A stretch of 64,000 bases of DNA. Origin: an uncultured Poribacteria bacterium. GTDB taxonomy: Bacteria; Poribacteria; WGA-4E; WGA-3G. Position numbers and translations under genes: made by a program. A model generated the notes under the pieces. The model saw only the letters and a list, made by a program, of their open reading frames with translations. It was not told where the DNA came from and did not search any database. The stretch lies in contig CATQHZ020000001.1 of NCBI GenBank assembly GCA_958296135.2, positions 3,744,001 through 3,808,000 on the forward strand, read 5' to 3'. Positions 20,506-25,529 of the stretch are shown in pieces (the stretch's first letter is position 1; each line of letters begins with the position of its first letter).

Positions 20506-21723
20506 TTACGCCGCAAAATCCTTCAGACACTCCTCATACACGCGAAACCGTTCGCCTTCTTGCTCTTCCGCATCGACAAGCTTGAGCCACAGCGCGCTAT
20601 CCTTATGCGCACCGCTCAACTGCCGGCGACTGCCGAGATGCGCCGGATCCGGCCCGCTCCATACCACCTCGCCGCCCTGCAAATAGATGAAATTCCCGCG
20701 ATACCGGTCGATCAGCGATTTCTGGTTCTCCAAATAAACCAGCCCCTGCTCACATGTTGTCCGCCGCCAATTCGCAACCGTTTCAGGGCTATCTGTCTCC
20801 ACTGAATCGAACTCCGCCAACGGCGCGGTAACTTCGCTCGTCCAATCAATCTCGTCAAGGTTTACCGTGCCGTATCCGCGACGCGCAGCGATGAGGATAT
20901 GGTTCCGGTCCCGTTTGAAAGGCGGTGTCGGCCAATCCGACCTCGGGTCGTGCCCCATCAGATGCATGCCGATGGTATCGGTTGCAATGGGATGGTCTCC
21001 TGCAATAAGCGCGTTACAGATTCTGCCTTCGCCGCCCCATTCGCGGCCCCACTGCCCCGTCAGCGCGTCAATGATATTGAGGCACGGCTTCGTTATCAAC
21101 GCAAGATCGGGCAGCACATAAGAGAGACGAATCAGGTGGTGATAATAGCTGCGCGTTCTGCCTTCTGGCAGCAACATCGGCGGCAACCCGAACAGATTCT
21201 TGGTGCATAACGTAATGCCCATGAAGGCATGATTTTTCATTTTCGCCACAGAGACGACAGCATCCGCATCGTCAAAACAAGCACTCAGCGTGTAACGATC
21301 GAACATTGAACCGCCGCCGGGGACATCGTAAACCTTAAACGGTGGCAGGTTAGAATCGACAAAATCCACCCCGAATTCTTTGAGGTGATGTTCATAATTA
21401 AAACCGGGCGGCATCCGATGCCCGTGCGTATATGGATTCGTATCCGTAGCCACAATTTGCGCGCGCGTATGCTCCTTCAGCAGCCGAAACACCGCTCGGC
21501 ACACTGCATCGTCCACCAATTCTCTTCGTCGGCCCTCGTAGTAGATAATCCGCTCGTGCGGCTTCATCATATTCAGTTTGATGACAACCTTGTTAGCCGT
21601 TTCAATGGGTTTCCAGGCGCGTGTCAACGGATCGGTAATCCGGCGCAGCGTCTGATAAATTTCTTCTTCTGTCGCCCGATAATCACAATGCGCCGCCCGC
21701 ACCTTAAACTGTTTTTCCATCAT
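20506..21723 (-). CDS. DUF362 family protein
   Basis: VVIKLN, VSVAKMKNH, TLCTKNLFG, LNIIDAL and HPIATD pattern. Confidence 0.75.
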   Translation of the reverse strand: MMEKQFKVRAAHCDYRATEEEIYQTLRRITDPLTRAWKPIETANKVVIKLNMMKPHERIIYYEGRRRELVDDAVCRAVFRLLKEHTRAQIVATDTNPYTHGHRMPPGFNYEHHLKEFGVDFVDSNLPPFKVYDVPGGGSMFDRYTLSACFDDADAVVSVAKMKNHAFMGITLCTKNLFGLPPMLLPEGRTRSYYHHLIRLSYVLPDLALITKPCLNIIDALTGQWGREWGGEGRICNALIAGDHPIATDTIGMHLMGHDPRSDWPTPPFKRDRNHILIAARRGYGTVNLDEIDWTSEVTAPLAEFDSVETDSPETVANWRRTTCEQGLVYLENQKSLIDRYRGNFIYLQGGEVVWSGPDPAHLGSRRQLSGAHKDSALWLKLVDAEEQEGERFRVYEECLKDFAA

Positions 21724-21807
21724 ATCCCTCGCCTCACAATCTTGTTTCTTTTAAAATAACATCTTGTCCAAAAATTATCAAGACATTTTTTATCTCCTCC
21801 CACGTTA

Positions 21808-21940
21808 AATCCCCCGCGCACCGTCCCGCGCGGTCCTGTCCCACGCAAACACCTGCAGAAACAAAAAACGCCCGCAGCCCGGAGGCCAGGGCGTTTTTGA
21901 TACAATCGACGCACGGCGCGGCACAGGACCGCGCCCTACA
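21808..21940. repeat. About 130-bp REPIN-like element, copy 1
   Basis: Near-identical to 22942-23074 (CACCGTCCCGCG...GCAAACACCTGCAGAAACAAAAAACGCCCGCAGCCCGGAGGCCAGGGCGTTTTTGATA...GGCGCGGCACAGGACCGCGCCCTAC). Confidence 0.85.
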
Positions 21941-22000
21941 GTGAAAAGGGAACGCGGTTTGAGAAATTCTGCATCCCCCGATTTACGGGTGAAAGTGGCG

Positions 22001-22405
22001 TTAAAGTTTCTGCCACTTAAAATGAACCGTCAGTCCAGTTCCATCTGAAGTAGAAAAAGTGAGATAGGTCCCATCCCAAGCATAGGAGGTTGGATCTCCA
22101 TCAAGTGATAAGATCGTTCCATTAGCACTCCAAGAGTAACCTAAGTGGTCAACCTTATCACCTCCATCGAACACGTAATTCATAGACCAGGACCCGCCGC
22201 CGACGTTGAGGTTGAGTTGCCCGAAGAGGTCTGGAGGACGGACAACAATGGAACTTCCATCCACTTCAACCTCTATCTCAGTCGCCGTATACTTTCCGGT
22301 GAGTTCATCCATCGCTTCATCTTCATCGTCTCCGCCGCAGCCGACGAAGGCAATGGCGAACAACGCAACCAGCATTAACGCGAAAACGCGAAAACTATTT
22401 TTCAT
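22001..22405 (-). CDS. Lipoprotein of unknown function (beta-rich, possibly lipocalin-like)
   Basis: MKNSFRVFALMLVALFAIAFVGC lipobox; AAAGGAG SD. Confidence 0.8.
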   Translation of the reverse strand: MKNSFRVFALMLVALFAIAFVGCGGDDEDEAMDELTGKYTATEIEVEVDGSSIVVRPPDLFGQLNLNVGGGSWSMNYVFDGGDKVDHLGYSWSANGTILSLDGDPTSYAWDGTYLTFSTSDGTGLTVHFKWQKL

Positions 22406-22738
22406 CAAAAATCTCCTTTCTCGCACCATGGCGAGCAGTTAAAGAAGCCAGACGCAAAGGCGCGCTTTGGCAGCGCGCAGACAAGAAACTGCGCCTGTCT
22501 TGTGCAACAGAAATAGCCCGTAACGAGATAGAACTCGTACGGGATTGAAGGCAAAACGACGATGGCTACCGACGTTGCCTTGTGAAAATAATGATTAACG
22601 TATGTTACGGGGGGGGGTAAATCGCCCTAACCGATTGTCAAAACAACCGATGGCCTGTGAGGGTGCGAAGGCGCGACACGATGCACTACAGAGGGGTATC
22701 ACCTTTCCGATGTTACGATGGATATGTGCGTTATGCAT
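22405..22738 (-). other. Poly-C-interrupted leader ORF overlapping a structured 5' leader
   Basis: MHNAHIH...GRFTPPRNIR* stops at 22595. The +1 frame after C9 (22609-22617) is open for 67 codons to TGA at 22407-22405, which overlaps the lipoprotein ATG. Confidence 0.6.
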
Positions 22739-22796
22739 AGTTGTCGCGCCTTGAGAGATTTCGGATAGCCGCCGTGCCACCCATTTTTCAATAAGA

Positions 22797-22843
22797 ATTA
22801 TACCACAAAAAAGAATTATACCACAAAAATTTCAATTTGTCAA
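22797..22843 (-). promoter_or_regulatory. Sigma70 promoter with duplicated extended -10
   Basis: TTGACA-17 bp-TATAAT with TGTGG; an 18-bp duplication gives a second TGTGGTATAAT. Confidence 0.8.
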
Positions 22844-22941
22844 ATTTTTTTAATAGAAAATCCCAACGCACACCGTAGCGCGAGGGCCCGGCGATCGCGA
22901 ATCGCCGAGGGTTTCCCACGCGAACGTCCGATCTCCAACGA

Positions 22942-23570
22942 AAATCCCCCACGCACCGTCCCGCGAGGACCTGTCCCACGCAAACACCTGCAGAAACAAA
23001 AAACGCCCGCAGCCCGGAGGCCAGGGCGTTTTTGATATTATCAATGCATGGCGCGGCACAGGACCGCGCCCTACGGTTCAACAGCGGTTTTCTGCGCCCG
23101 CAGCCCGAAGACCCGGGCATTGCCTGATATCATCAATGCATGGCGCGGCACAGGACCGCGCCCTACGGTTCAACAGCGGTTTTCTGCGCCCGCAGCCCGA
23201 AGACCCGGGCATTGCCTGATATCATCAATGCATGGCGCGGCACAGGACCGCGCCCTACGGTTCAACAGCGGTTTTCTGCGCCCGCAGCCCGAAGACCCGG
23301 GCGTCTCCTGATACAATCAATGCATGGCGCGGCACAGGACCGCGCCCTACGGTTCAACAGCGGTTTTCTGCGCCCGCAGCCCGGAGACCCGGGCGTTTCC
23401 TGATACAATCGACGCATGGCGAGGGGAACCCTCGGCGATTCGTGATCGCCGGGCCCTCGCCCTACGGTTCACTCCACGCCCTACGGTTCAACGCAATACA
23501 ATCTGGCCAGAAAACGGCTCACCCTGAACTCGCCCTACGGTTCAACAGCGGTTTTCTGCGCCCGCAGCAA
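22942..23570. repeat. REPIN-like element copy 2 plus 92-bp tandem array
   Basis: Units start at 23048, 23140, 23232 and 23324. Each has a REP hairpin plus CTACGGTTCAACAGCGGTTTTCTGCGCCCGCAGC. Confidence 0.9.
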
Positions 23571-25529
23571 TCGCCGCATCACCTTATTCGATGCAGTCCG
23601 AGGCAAAGCCTCCACTACCACAACCTCATCAATCCGAAACAACGGATTCAGACGCTGACGCAATGCCGCTTGCAACGCTGTGTGAATTTCTGGTATGGAA
23701 ATCGCGCCGAGCGGCACAACATAAATCACCAACCGACTCGGCCCCCCATCCTTCGGCGATACCGCCACCGCCGCCGTTTCCCGAATCCCATCAACGCCGT
23801 TCAGCACCTCCTCAATTTCTGCAGAACTCACCTTAATCCCACTCAAATTCATCGTATCGTCAACGCGCCCATGAATCCGATAATATCCTCTCGCTAGCCG
23901 CTCCAGCGCATCGCCGTGCCGCCGCAGATGCGGCTGAGGCGTTCCGGAAAAATAGACTTCATCATGCGCTGCATTCAGCAAACGCCTTGACAACCCCAGC
24001 GATGGCGGAACAATAAAAACCTCGCCGTTATCCGCAAGATTCCCCTCCTCATCGCAAAGCACAAAATCTAAACCGAGCGCGGCGGTTGTAAACGTCGAAG
24101 GCGCAGCCGGTTGCACGCGCGTACCTGTCACATACGCACCCCCGATTTCTGTCCCACCGCAATATTCAATCACCGGCCGGTAATCAGCCAGCGACATCAA
24201 AAATAGCATCTCCATCGGATTAGAACATTCGCCGGTTGAACTGAAAGCCCGAATCGCGCGCCAATCTAGGCCCTGCATGCAGCCGCTATTTCTCCACGCA
24301 CGCACCAGCGTCGGGACGACACCGAGCATGCTTACCTTCGCGTTCTGCACGAAAATACCGAAATCTCGCCCGGTCGGCACGCCATCGTAAAGGGCAATTG
24401 TGCCCCGATTGATAAGACTCGCATAGATAAGCCAAGGCCCCATCATCCAACCGAGGTTCGTCGGCCACGCGAGAACATCGCCGGGATGAATATCGTGATG
24501 GAGGAAAGCATCCGCCGCGCACTTTATCGGCGTGGTATGCGTCCACGGAATCGCCTTCGGCTCCCCTGTCGTCCCCGACGAAAAGAGGATATTCGTATGC
24601 GCTTCGGGATAACACGGCACCGCCGTAAACGTCTCGCAGGCACTCAGAAAATCCGCCCACGTCAGATCGTTCCTACTCGCGTTTAACTCCGCCGCTGTAT
24701 CCGACAACACAACTGCCCTCGGCGCGTTTGCTGCAACAACCTTCTCATACAACGGCAGCCGTTTCCCACCCCGATCAATAGCATCCTGCGTAAAAACCGC
24801 CTTCGCCTTGCCGATACGAAGCCGCGTCGCAATCTCCGCTGGCGCGAAACTATCGGCAATGGACACTACCGCGCACCCCGCCTTCACAATCCCCAGATAA
24901 ATCGCGACAGATTCCGCATGCATCGGCATATCAACCGCTACTGCATCCCCCGGCTCCAGGCCGAGTGCCACCAGTCCATTTGCAACGCGGTTCGTTAGAC
25001 ATTCCAACTCCTGATAGGTAATGTCTCTCAGCGTCGGATCCGTTTCGCTTCGCGCGATAATCGCAACCGCATCGTCAGGGGCGGTGAAACAACTCGCAAC
25101 GATGTTATAGCGGCTCCCTGTGATGTTCAGGTTTCTACCCGCACTTTCCACCTTGAGGGAAGGGACATGAACCCCCAATGTTTCAATCATCATCTCCCAA
25201 AACGCAGCACGGTTATCCACACTCCACGCATGAAATTCGCGATAGGTCTCTAACTCCAACTTCTCCATCAACTGCGTAATGTTGGCCTGCGCGATATCGG
25301 TTTCAGACGGAAACCAAGCCGGCGGCGTTCCTTGCGTCTCGGCATGCCACGCCGCATACACCCTCTCATACAGCAGTTGATGCACCGCGAACGGATGCCT
25401 CGGCGACAAGATATTGCGTGAAACCTCGCGCCAACACGCCGCCGCCCCCTTTTCCGCCAAAAGCGCGTTCACTGCCTCCACTGCCTCTGCCCCTAATCCA
25501 TAAGCGATGAGTTCTTTCGATGTGAGCAT
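23535..25529 (-). CDS. AMP-binding acyl-CoA synthetase (acetate/acetoacetate-CoA ligase-like)
   Basis: ILFSSGTTGEPK, EYCGGTEIGG, HGRVDDTMN and LPRTASNKVMRR. Confidence 0.9.
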   Translation of the reverse strand: MLTSKELIAYGLGAEAVEAVNALLAEKGAAACWREVSRNILSPRHPFAVHQLLYERVYAAWHAETQGTPPAWFPSETDIAQANITQLMEKLELETYREFHAWSVDNRAAFWEMMIETLGVHVPSLKVESAGRNLNITGSRYNIVASCFTAPDDAVAIIARSETDPTLRDITYQELECLTNRVANGLVALGLEPGDAVAVDMPMHAESVAIYLGIVKAGCAVVSIADSFAPAEIATRLRIGKAKAVFTQDAIDRGGKRLPLYEKVVAANAPRAVVLSDTAAELNASRNDLTWADFLSACETFTAVPCYPEAHTNILFSSGTTGEPKAIPWTHTTPIKCAADAFLHHDIHPGDVLAWPTNLGWMMGPWLIYASLINRGTIALYDGVPTGRDFGIFVQNAKVSMLGVVPTLVRAWRNSGCMQGLDWRAIRAFSSTGECSNPMEMLFLMSLADYRPVIEYCGGTEIGGAYVTGTRVQPAAPSTFTTAALGLDFVLCDEEGNLADNGEVFIVPPSLGLSRRLLNAAHDEVYFSGTPQPHLRRHGDALERLARGYYRIHGRVDDTMNLSGIKVSSAEIEEVLNGVDGIRETAAVAVSPKDGGPSRLVIYVVPLGAISIPEIHTALQAALRQRLNPLFRIDEVVVVEALPRTASNKVMRRLLRAQKTAVEP

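Follow-up and report, generated by a model that had tools for sequence, protein, structure and literature searches.

In the 64,000-nt stretch of Poribacteria DNA analysed here (the window; contig CATQHZ020000001.1), a run of nine cytosines (C9) lies on the minus strand within a short upstream open reading frame (uORF) that precedes a lipoprotein gene. Judged from the sequence, there is about an even chance that this poly-C element is a homopolymer reading-frame switch, that is, a contingency or recoding cassette, and that the copy in the window stands in its stop state. The tract would be the slippery core of a lineage-specific 5' cassette made up of a promoter, a Shine-Dalgarno (SD) sequence, a short ORF, C8 to C10 and a flank ending in GTTAA, and the cassette is found in front of or within genes that encode secreted proteins, lipoproteins or DNA methyltransferases. 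In the stop state, ribosomes would end at a UAA five codons after Pro-Pro and would leave intact two hairpins further on (P1 and P2) and a third that holds the SD of the lipoprotein gene. Another C count would set another frame, be it by slippage of replication, of RNA polymerase or of the ribosome on CCC-CCC-CCC, and translation would then cross all three hairpins and reach the start region of the lipoprotein. Such read-through would suppress termination and expose the ribosome-binding site. We infer that the two states interconvert, at some level, and that read-through raises lipoprotein expression.

The leader and its families

All coordinates are positions in the window, and the features of the leader are on the minus strand. 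The leader begins with a sigma-70 type promoter, TTGACA-17-TATAAT with an extended TG (22843..22815; 12/12 matches), and this promoter block is repeated at many loci of the window genome (G000; C1 is its main contig). An 18-nt tandem duplication (22790..22825; family D4, 94% identity) provides a second TATAAT box, the two boxes being 18 nt apart; the second copy is missing from the orthologous leader of a genome of the same genus, G002, which has a single box. The uORF has 47 codons and a TAA (MHNAHIHRNIGKVIPLCSASCRAFAPSQAIGCFDNRLGRFTPPRNIR*; 22595..22738, TAA at 22597-22595). Its ATG at 22738 lines up with the SD-led GTG or ATG starts of related leaders and is taken as the homologous start, the GTG at 22780 being an in-frame alternative. 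The C9 run (22617-22609) is read as (A)CC CCC CCC C, Thr-Pro-Pro, in the frame ..TPPRNIR*, and is followed by the conserved 3' flank GTAACATACGTTAA (22595..22608), whose GTTAA (22599-22595) provides the stop. Next come P1 (22549..22580; -11.9 kcal/mol, z -3.09) and P2 (22543-22517; -14.5 kcal/mol, z -3.83), the latter resembling an intrinsic terminator together with its tail CUAUUUCUGUUGCA (22516-22503). The lipoprotein gene (22001..22405) has its own SD and ATG and encodes 134 aa, with a signal peptide, the lipobox FVGC and then an acidic linker; it matched no Pfam family and was not found in the protein Atlas.

An initial annotation of this DNA had described the promoter, a leader ORF running from GTG 22780 or ATG 22738 through the C9 tract to a TAA, a shifted frame ending in TGATG at the lipoprotein start, and a hairpin over the SD of that gene. 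All of these are present where they had been placed, and the leader ORF proves to be conserved, SD-led and begun at the homologous ATG 22738. P1 and P2, which lie between the uORF and the lipoprotein gene, were absent from that model.

The leader is one of many. A BLAST search of the leader against its own genome matched pieces elsewhere, and a subsequent profile search (nhmmer) recovered 11 full-length paralogues of the leader there, at E 1e-17 or better, plus a partial one. The annotation had asked whether the same leader stands ahead of other genes; it does, as a family, both in this genome and in its relatives. The parts follow one order in every paralogue: strong promoter, SD with a GTG or ATG start, ORF, tract, stop, two hairpins and the motif GGGCTATTTCTGTTGCA, the P2 motif region being kept in the 11 paralogues. 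The ORF has about 45-60 codons, is of the type (M)NQRI.N.IAKKV...(F/I/S)TPP(P), and runs through C8-C10 to a stop in or next to GTTAA. Usually a gene with a signal peptide follows. A second family of leaders (family 2), with 10 copies, lies ahead of genes for secreted proteins of about 1300-1450 aa and shares only the tract module with the first (family 1). By inspection and hydropathy, 10/11 curated downstream genes open with a signal peptide or a lipobox, and the remaining one with a membrane segment. They encode the lipoprotein, LamG proteins (two are Laminin_G_3) and large secreted proteins, and none is related to proline or to the secretion machinery.

These surroundings bear on a more modest explanation, namely that the unit is a stand-alone small gene (for a peptide of about 50 aa or an RNA of about 300 nt) or a decayed N-terminal module, with the lipoprotein gene expressed by basal read-through and the tract having no role in it. 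The promoter, the SD and the terminator-like P2 do bound a compact unit; no gene lies near two of the family 1 copies (C1:4898210 and C1:784422); in a second genome of the genus, G001, the orthologous gene context occurs without the unit; and where the module is fused to a gene it forms the N-terminus of the protein. Against this explanation, a promoter scan of 21500-23600 found two sites only and nothing promoter-like between P2 and the lipoprotein gene, and 10/11 curated copies lie directly ahead of genes for secreted proteins or lipoproteins. The uORF peptides match no Pfam or NCBIfam family at threshold, and a profile built from 15 of them found 23 representatives among 1.84 billion proteins. 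The strict use of CCC in the tract and the GTTAA would also go unexplained, and on balance we find this account improbable.

The cassette appears to be a feature of one lineage. The nearest relatives of a 512-aa conserved protein of the window come from metagenome-assembled genomes (MAGs) labelled Candidatus Poribacteria (87, 82 and 82% identity). G000 has 28 instances of the pattern A-C8+, 8-16 nt, GTTAA; G001 and G002 of the same genus have 18 and 39, and G004, G005, G007 and G009, which represent three other genera of the family, have 10, 6, 8 and 43. Reversed-pattern controls gave 0 in six of these seven genomes and 4 in G001. The pattern is absent from 12 genomes of three other families of the order. 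In a sample of the phylum it was matched in 56/151 genomes, comprising 49/99 of the same family, 5/26 and 1/2 in two other families and 0 elsewhere; high counts come mostly from assemblies of few contigs, and fragmented MAGs may under-report. On C1, 35/83 C/G runs of at least 8 have a GTTAA within 30 nt, which is far beyond chance. G/C runs of lengths 7/8/9/10 number 58/28/43/10 on C1, with a peak at 9, whereas A/T runs decay monotonically. Among 87 unique instances in three genomes, the tract is C8 in 35, C9 in 40, C10 in 11 and C11 in 1. A family 2 alignment used in search of related loci matched 40 stretches, none of which was confirmed, and a 31-letter degenerate DNA pattern had 0 matches in metagenome contigs.

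Stop and read-through states

Both states are seen at homologous loci, among paralogues as well as in public gene calls. The closest paralogue of the window leader, C1:4424615, has C9 in the contigs of 4/4 public runs and is in the read-through state, its frame ending 15 nt before a LamG gene; its G002 orthologue likewise reads through and ends 15 nt before the LamG gene. At C1:3492933 (C9), MKYLSTL...TRFTPP is fused in frame to a signal peptide in an ORF of 1242 codons, and its near-identical paralogue C1:2933748 (C8) stops at GTTAA; the two have identical 30-nt 3' flanks, and both lack a separate start codon in between. At C1:3733831, C10 stands between an SD-led MMNVMAKHDKKTT and a signal peptide. 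At C1:2331385 (C8) an ORF that stays open for 18,302 nt has the tract in frame within its 5' part, and an N-terminal extension of about 80 residues comes before the signal peptide. At two loci of G009 (L183 and L181) the tract makes up codons 6-8 of in-frame MKRRMHPPLLYVK.. (MKRRMHPP..) signal peptides. It should be noted that the tract length in the window changes the frame of the uORF only, whereas in other copies the tract lies in the gene itself.

Public proteins tell a similar story. P0007 (57 aa, 2 contigs) ends ..TPPLHIR*, and P0009/P0024/P0025 (3 records from three sources), which have the same residues before the tract, continue as ..TPPPSYTLSIV..; back-translation of the shared flank puts the two versions one C apart. 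Two records that differ at several residues, P0012 and P0026, are 133-aa read-through relatives of the window uORF. They are 69% identical to it over residues 1-48 and, beyond the tract, 60% identical to the alternative-frame translation of the window. The genome of P0012 was not among the 111 genomes of the family that were searched, and of 194 stretches that P0012 matched in metagenome contigs none was confirmed.

Tracts also occur within DNA methyltransferase genes. Three G009 ORFs of this kind (L175, L178 and L189) are split at the tract, with Pfam N6_N4_Mtase matched upstream of it in L175 (E 1.5e-36) and downstream of it in L189 (E 1.8e-17). All three tracts are C9 and in the stop frame, and exactly one additional C in each would join on the downstream half. 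Homopolymer under-calling could account for this, as could programmed slippage, or all three genes may be OFF. In G000, an element of about 1.5 kb is conserved in six copies (C1: 195560, 601424, 670252, 1453394, 2953835 and 4145689), each of which encodes a methyltransferase-like protein split in two frames by a G9 or G10 run. Copies in G009 differ in tract length (C8 vs. C11, or C8 vs. C9), and assembly error is possible for most such differences between copies.

The idea that the tract is a frame switch, as the annotation had it, thus gains from a large family in which tract length sets early stop vs. read-through; the particular coupling that it had drawn at TGATG is not conserved, as detailed below. 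Its general idea of a leader switch that leaves the gene itself untouched is partly supported.

Length differences of this kind invite the suspicion of sequencing error. If the true tract of the window were C8, an ordinary gene would have been split by one miscalled base; homopolymers are error-prone, and the assembly is long-read-like, with 4 contigs. C9 is however the consensus in Logan contigs of 4/4 public runs, which cover 22300-22872 or more and match the window there without a single difference or gap; no RNA dataset was listed as carrying the sequence. One sample, possibly the source of the assembly, yielded all four runs, and contigs drop rare variants; because all four give C9, the length is not peculiar to this assembly. 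A fixed C8, which would have exposed an error, was not seen in these contigs. The joined frame of 128 codons matches no family and the G002 orthologue keeps the stop, and we regard the error explanation as hardly credible. The broader candidate of a single frameshifted ordinary gene was rejected on the confirmed C9, the stop kept in the orthologue, and a post-stop region that is structured and has indels not in multiples of three.

Orthologues, RNA structure and the nascent peptide

Several observations weigh against the frame switch. No length variants of the C9 tract were found among the contigs of the 4 runs, which are from one sample and, as said, lose rare variants. Some of the differences of one C between copies may be homopolymer errors of long-read-like assemblies, only two tracts having been checked in independent contigs. 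Ten near-identical G002 copies (C8 then GACACCCACAGGC) are all C8. At the lipoprotein locus itself, the G002 tract has decayed to C7TT with frame and stop kept, the tract plus spacer being 18 nt in both genomes. The G001 orthologue has no promoter, uORF, tract or P1, and its homology starts at a sharp boundary at ..CATTTCTGTTGCA in the P2 tail. An intact lipoprotein ORF is present in all three genomes, that of G002 (133 aa) being much diverged from that of G000; because of this, and because G002 keeps the stop frame, the stop state cannot fully silence the gene. In family 1 the open frames that reach the downstream start are not enriched (3 vs. 2.6 expected, P 0.55); over all 11 curated copies there are 6 vs. 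3.0 expected (P 0.025), four family 2 copies among them not being independent. Depending on the gene, the conserved 3' flank is read in one of three frames, which a simple switch does not explain. Finally, neither the consensus fold of 11 copies nor the fold of this copy contains an antiterminator that competes with P2 and overlaps the uORF.

The whole cassette is therefore polymorphic within the genus, being present in G000 and G002 and absent from G001. In G001 (L124) the lipoprotein gene comes directly after an acyl-CoA-synthetase-like gene and repetitive extragenic palindromic (REP) hairpins, with no cassette. As for the claim that this copy is OFF, it is in the stop state by the logic of the family; that the stop state means gene OFF is doubtful, the stop frame being kept in G002.

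The region after the stop is RNA structure rather than coding sequence, with indels that do not come in threes. When 11 copies are folded together, 6 of the 12 predicted pairs of P1 and 5 of the 10 of P2 are changed on both sides, those of P1 in at least one copy. P2 is GC-rich and conserved, with compensatory changes; its tail is U-rich but imperfect, and a simple terminator scan did not list it. The family 2 leader is longer and strongly structured, with its own hairpin and U-rich tail and with indels that are not in threes. A search of 22405-22843 with Rfam covariance models gave no match at the gathering score nor at E up to 10. Pairing of the tract end with the 3' arm of P2 was considered as an antiterminator and rejected, the 8-nt match being confined to this copy and not shared by G002. 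A poly-C seed pairing, GGAU.ACCCCCC with GGGGGGAUAUCC, is possible and invariant in family 2 only; it was not found in family 1 and was set aside.

The third hairpin and the alternative frame are the parts on which the annotation had built its model. It supposed that ribosomes in the +1 frame (C8, C11 or a +1 slip) would travel 67 codons from the tract to TGATG, melt the SD hairpin and reinitiate on the lipoprotein ATG. The frame (22405..22608, VTYVNHYF...CEKGDF) does run from the tract to the TGA of TGATG, and the hairpin CUUCUUU/AAAGGAG on CUCGC/GCGAG (22413..22447, SD AAAGGAG at 22419-22413) is the predicted minimum-energy fold (-11.3 kcal/mol), retained by both orthologues (G002 and G001), where the loop differs. 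The read-through proteins P0012 and P0026 cross the SD, and one other copy, C1:1154313, has an ATGA overlap. In G002, however, the +1 frame stops after 5 codons; another frame is open there and ends at ATG+8, and it is with the stop of this frame, 8 nt past the lipoprotein ATG, that P0012 and P0026 end (..ARKEIFDEK). Among the copies tabulated, an alternative-frame stop overlaps the predicted start only in this copy and C1:1154313, so that the post-tract frame does not always end at the downstream start.

Two of these elements are unremarkable against shuffles. The 67 stop-free codons are present, but 47% of dinucleotide shuffles of the 192 nt between stop and ATG keep a comparable frame open to within 33 nt of the ATG. 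This copy has 3 stops vs. 5.9 in shuffles (P 0.07); coding potential in the long open frames was rejected as an explanation, composition accounting for the depletion of stops. The SD sequestration folds as described, but with an ordinary energy that is no better than that of shuffles (z -0.62, 47/200 shuffles equal), and G001 keeps the hairpin without any leader. The model also leaves out P1 and P2. The specific coupling at TGATG is not supported, and we rate the full model as slightly less probable even than the stand-alone gene.

The uORF itself shows signs of translation: a homologous start led by an SD (as are the uORF starts of the paralogues), indels in multiples of three within the uORFs, and synonymous change in its second half. 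Over the whole unit G000 and G002 are 81% identical at the nucleotide level. In codons 23-43 of the uORF, 4/4 changes between them are synonymous; among the changes in codons 1-22, 1 is synonymous and 7 are non-synonymous. All of the four codons that follow Pro-Pro are changed, with length and stop kept. The motif before the tract, (V/L/F)(D/N)x5(F/I/S)TPP, is common to leader families that are otherwise unrelated. The Pro codons of the tract are always CCC, which makes up 22% of Pro codons in long ORFs; tRNA-Pro genes with GGG, CGG and UGG anticodons are present, including one for tRNA-Pro(GGG). No version with another Pro codon turned up in a peptide-level search: of 22 matches, 14 were poly-C/GTTAA sites and the other 8 had no GTTAA.

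The pattern of changes in the uORF between G000 and G002 is what one would expect of an arrest peptide, and it suggests a different reading of the leader. The motif would stall the ribosome at CCC-CCC in a fixed frame, in a manner sensitive to elongation factor P (EF-P) or tRNA-Pro(GGG), and would control termination (intrinsic or Rho) or the fate of the mRNA with no change of frame. The synonymous-only stretch, the replacement of the codons after Pro-Pro with length and stop kept, the shared motif and the terminator-like hairpin downstream all fit, as does the stability of the stop frame in the orthologue. The excerpted text of PMC8129111 has CCC as the slowest Pro codon and as dependent on a single tRNA; one tRNA-Pro(GGG) gene is present here. 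Other observations are hard to fit. By inspection the stop codon lies 12-16 nt before P1, and a ribosome at Pro-Pro or at the UAA would touch neither P1 nor P2; no alternative pairing is conserved; and a stall sensor would make no sense within methyltransferase ORFs or at codons 6-8 of a signal peptide. According to the same excerpt, TPPP is a weak pauser in E. coli (PMC8129111), and the downstream genes concern neither proline nor the secretion machinery. By inspection, the uORF peptide has no hydrophobic N-terminal, signal or membrane segment. We consider this reading unlikely, but the conserved peptide before the prolines keeps alive a stall-based or stall-assisted variant of the switch.

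The flank of the tract poses a separate question. Over the 87 unique instances the consensus is TTTA-Cn-..YYAC[AG]NNY-GTTAA[CG][CT], with A at -1 in 93%, and across genera the flank is often ..TTCACATTCGTTAA. Directly before the stop stands NGT (R, C, S or G), a sign of constraint on the nucleotides rather than on the amino acid. If tract and flank were chiefly a nucleic-acid site, bound by a factor or processed, or if they belonged to a small mobile cassette, the frames would be secondary. A consensus kept across genera and read in three frames, the NGT codon, the presence of the whole unit in G000 and G002 but not in G001, and the sharp boundary at the P2 tail would suit such a site or cassette. 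But the frames are maintained (uORF indels in threes, stop kept in the orthologue), the borders of the cassette showed neither terminal repeats nor target duplications, and Rfam gave no match; we think this very unlikely. By inspection the flank has no consistent -10 element at 16-18 nt, and its candidacy as an alternative sigma or internal promoter was rejected.

Returning to the reading-frame switch, a wider version of it may be put forward tentatively. The module of TTTA, C8-10, a flank of about 13 nt and GTTAA may be a portable slippery cassette that brings dozens of surface-protein and methyltransferase genes under stochastic or recoding control. In the window, in its uORF form, it would act as a phase-variable or slippage-dependent attenuator that does not alter the regulated gene, and the flank would serve as a dedicated stimulator or guard of slippage, more than a stop codon.

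Known systems and neighbouring features

Homopolymer tracts such as those of pilC, opa and fim are familiar examples of phase variation, and repeat-mediated phase variation classically affects surface proteins and methyltransferases. The C9 tract belongs with homopolymers of at least 8, is associated with surface and restriction-modification genes, and differs in length between copies with conserved flanks. The phase-variable contingency loci and phasevarions of Campylobacter, Neisseria, Haemophilus and Helicobacter, as far as excerpts of PMC8437040, PMC5909438 and PMC3546556 describe them, are alike in having G/C runs of 8-10 at tens of loci per genome. They are also alike in their surface or secreted and DNA methyltransferase targets (Type III and other), in a frame set by tract length and in host association. 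They differ in that here, and in about 20 paralogues, the tract lies in a separate uORF and not in the regulated gene or its promoter. They differ too in that the Poribacteria tracts have a conserved flank with a fixed stop, and terminator-like hairpins before the gene, and are known from sequence alone. In Haemophilus influenzae hmw1A, according to excerpts of PMC12721329, a repeat in the transcribed leader likewise tunes a surface protein at the RNA level. That repeat, in the same excerpts, is however a heptamer simple sequence repeat in the untranslated 5' region that forms a long hairpin cut by RNase III, unlike the Poribacteria homopolymer in a translated-type uORF with a frame-dependent stop.

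A search of the literature on Poribacteria with "phase variation" or "homopolymer" found nothing relevant, and one on leader peptides, polyproline, arrest peptides and phase variation found known systems only and, among the papers of the library searched, no description of the cassette. Poribacteria are uncultivated, widespread symbionts of sponges with a large repertoire of surface proteins toward the host. If the switch is real, the 30-40 homopolymer loci of a genome, lying in surface-protein and methyltransferase genes, would give the first indication of a "phasome" in the phylum. A tract in a translated uORF, followed by a terminator, would then be a new wiring of a stochastic or recoding switch in which the gene is not risked, and the strictly conserved flank could point to a mechanism that controls slippage.

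Leaders that work by ribosome-mediated attenuation include those of trp, his, pheL and pyrBI and the proline-codon leader of mgtL/mgtP. In Clostridioides difficile cwpV a phase-variable leader forms or removes a terminator by recombinase-driven DNA inversion. The Poribacteria cassette resembles cwpV in that a heritable leader switch would act through a terminator before a surface gene, and differs from it in using a homopolymer in a uORF instead of inversion. Leader-peptide attenuators, in excerpts of the work on hisL (PMC8129111) and on EF-P and coupling (PMC5021804), share with it a short SD-led ORF with special codons and a terminator-like hairpin ahead of the gene. Unlike them, it has no exclusive antiterminator that could be found and no link to proline, and dozens of unrelated genes share the module.

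Slippage offers another comparison. Programmed slippage and +1 frameshifting (Thermus dnaX, Shigella spa13/spa32, insertion sequence elements, CCC_UGA), as covered by an excerpt of PMC5009743, also use a homopolymer of about 9 with a 0-frame stop soon after, and in spa13 slippage alters the expression of an overlapping downstream gene. The bacterial cases known from that excerpt use A/T runs, whereas here the run is of C and no conserved trans-frame protein is found. The slippery run with its near 0-frame stop is present in the window, but its open frame differs between G000 and G002. According to the same excerpt, runs of 9, which equal the RNA:DNA hybrid in length, allow efficient slippage by RNA polymerase (PMC5009743), and CCC/U-C is described as prone to frameshifting even in wild-type E. 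coli in the excerpt of PMC8129111. Arrest peptides such as SecM and the RAPP peptides ApdA/ApdP, in excerpts of PMC10951233 and PMC7897499, are alike in a conserved C-terminal nascent peptide that ends in Pro-Pro upstream of another gene. They are unlike the uORF, which has TPP instead of RAPP or RAGP, is not upstream of Sec or YidC components and has no signal or membrane segment.

A few further features of the region and the assembly may be added. Between the P2 tail and the SD hairpin lie a hairpin GCGCAG..CUGCGC (22494-22475), which the terminator/hairpin scan entered on the + strand, and a 21-nt palindromic genome repeat of the GCGCGC..AAAGCGCGCC type (22478-22458), which has more than 60 genome copies on both strands. 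Contig C2 (143,886 bp) has a GC content of 0.368 vs. 0.544 for the main contig, and C4 (15,139 bp) holds C88 and C17 runs; these contigs may be foreign or artefactual. Upstream of the promoter, five tandem 92-bp REP-like units (22941-23492) carry a GC-rich hairpin apiece and are members of a highly abundant repeat family: when such repeats were part of a 2.3-kb query, BLAST gave 816 rows in the genome. A weak Rfam match to Collinsella-1 within this array (22999-23162, + strand; 20.9 bits vs. a gathering score of 35) is probably spurious. The unit of promoter, uORF and lipoprotein gene is flanked by 136-nt direct repeats (21807..21942 and 22942-23077; family D3, 93% identity), each of which contains a strong terminator-like hairpin with a T-run.

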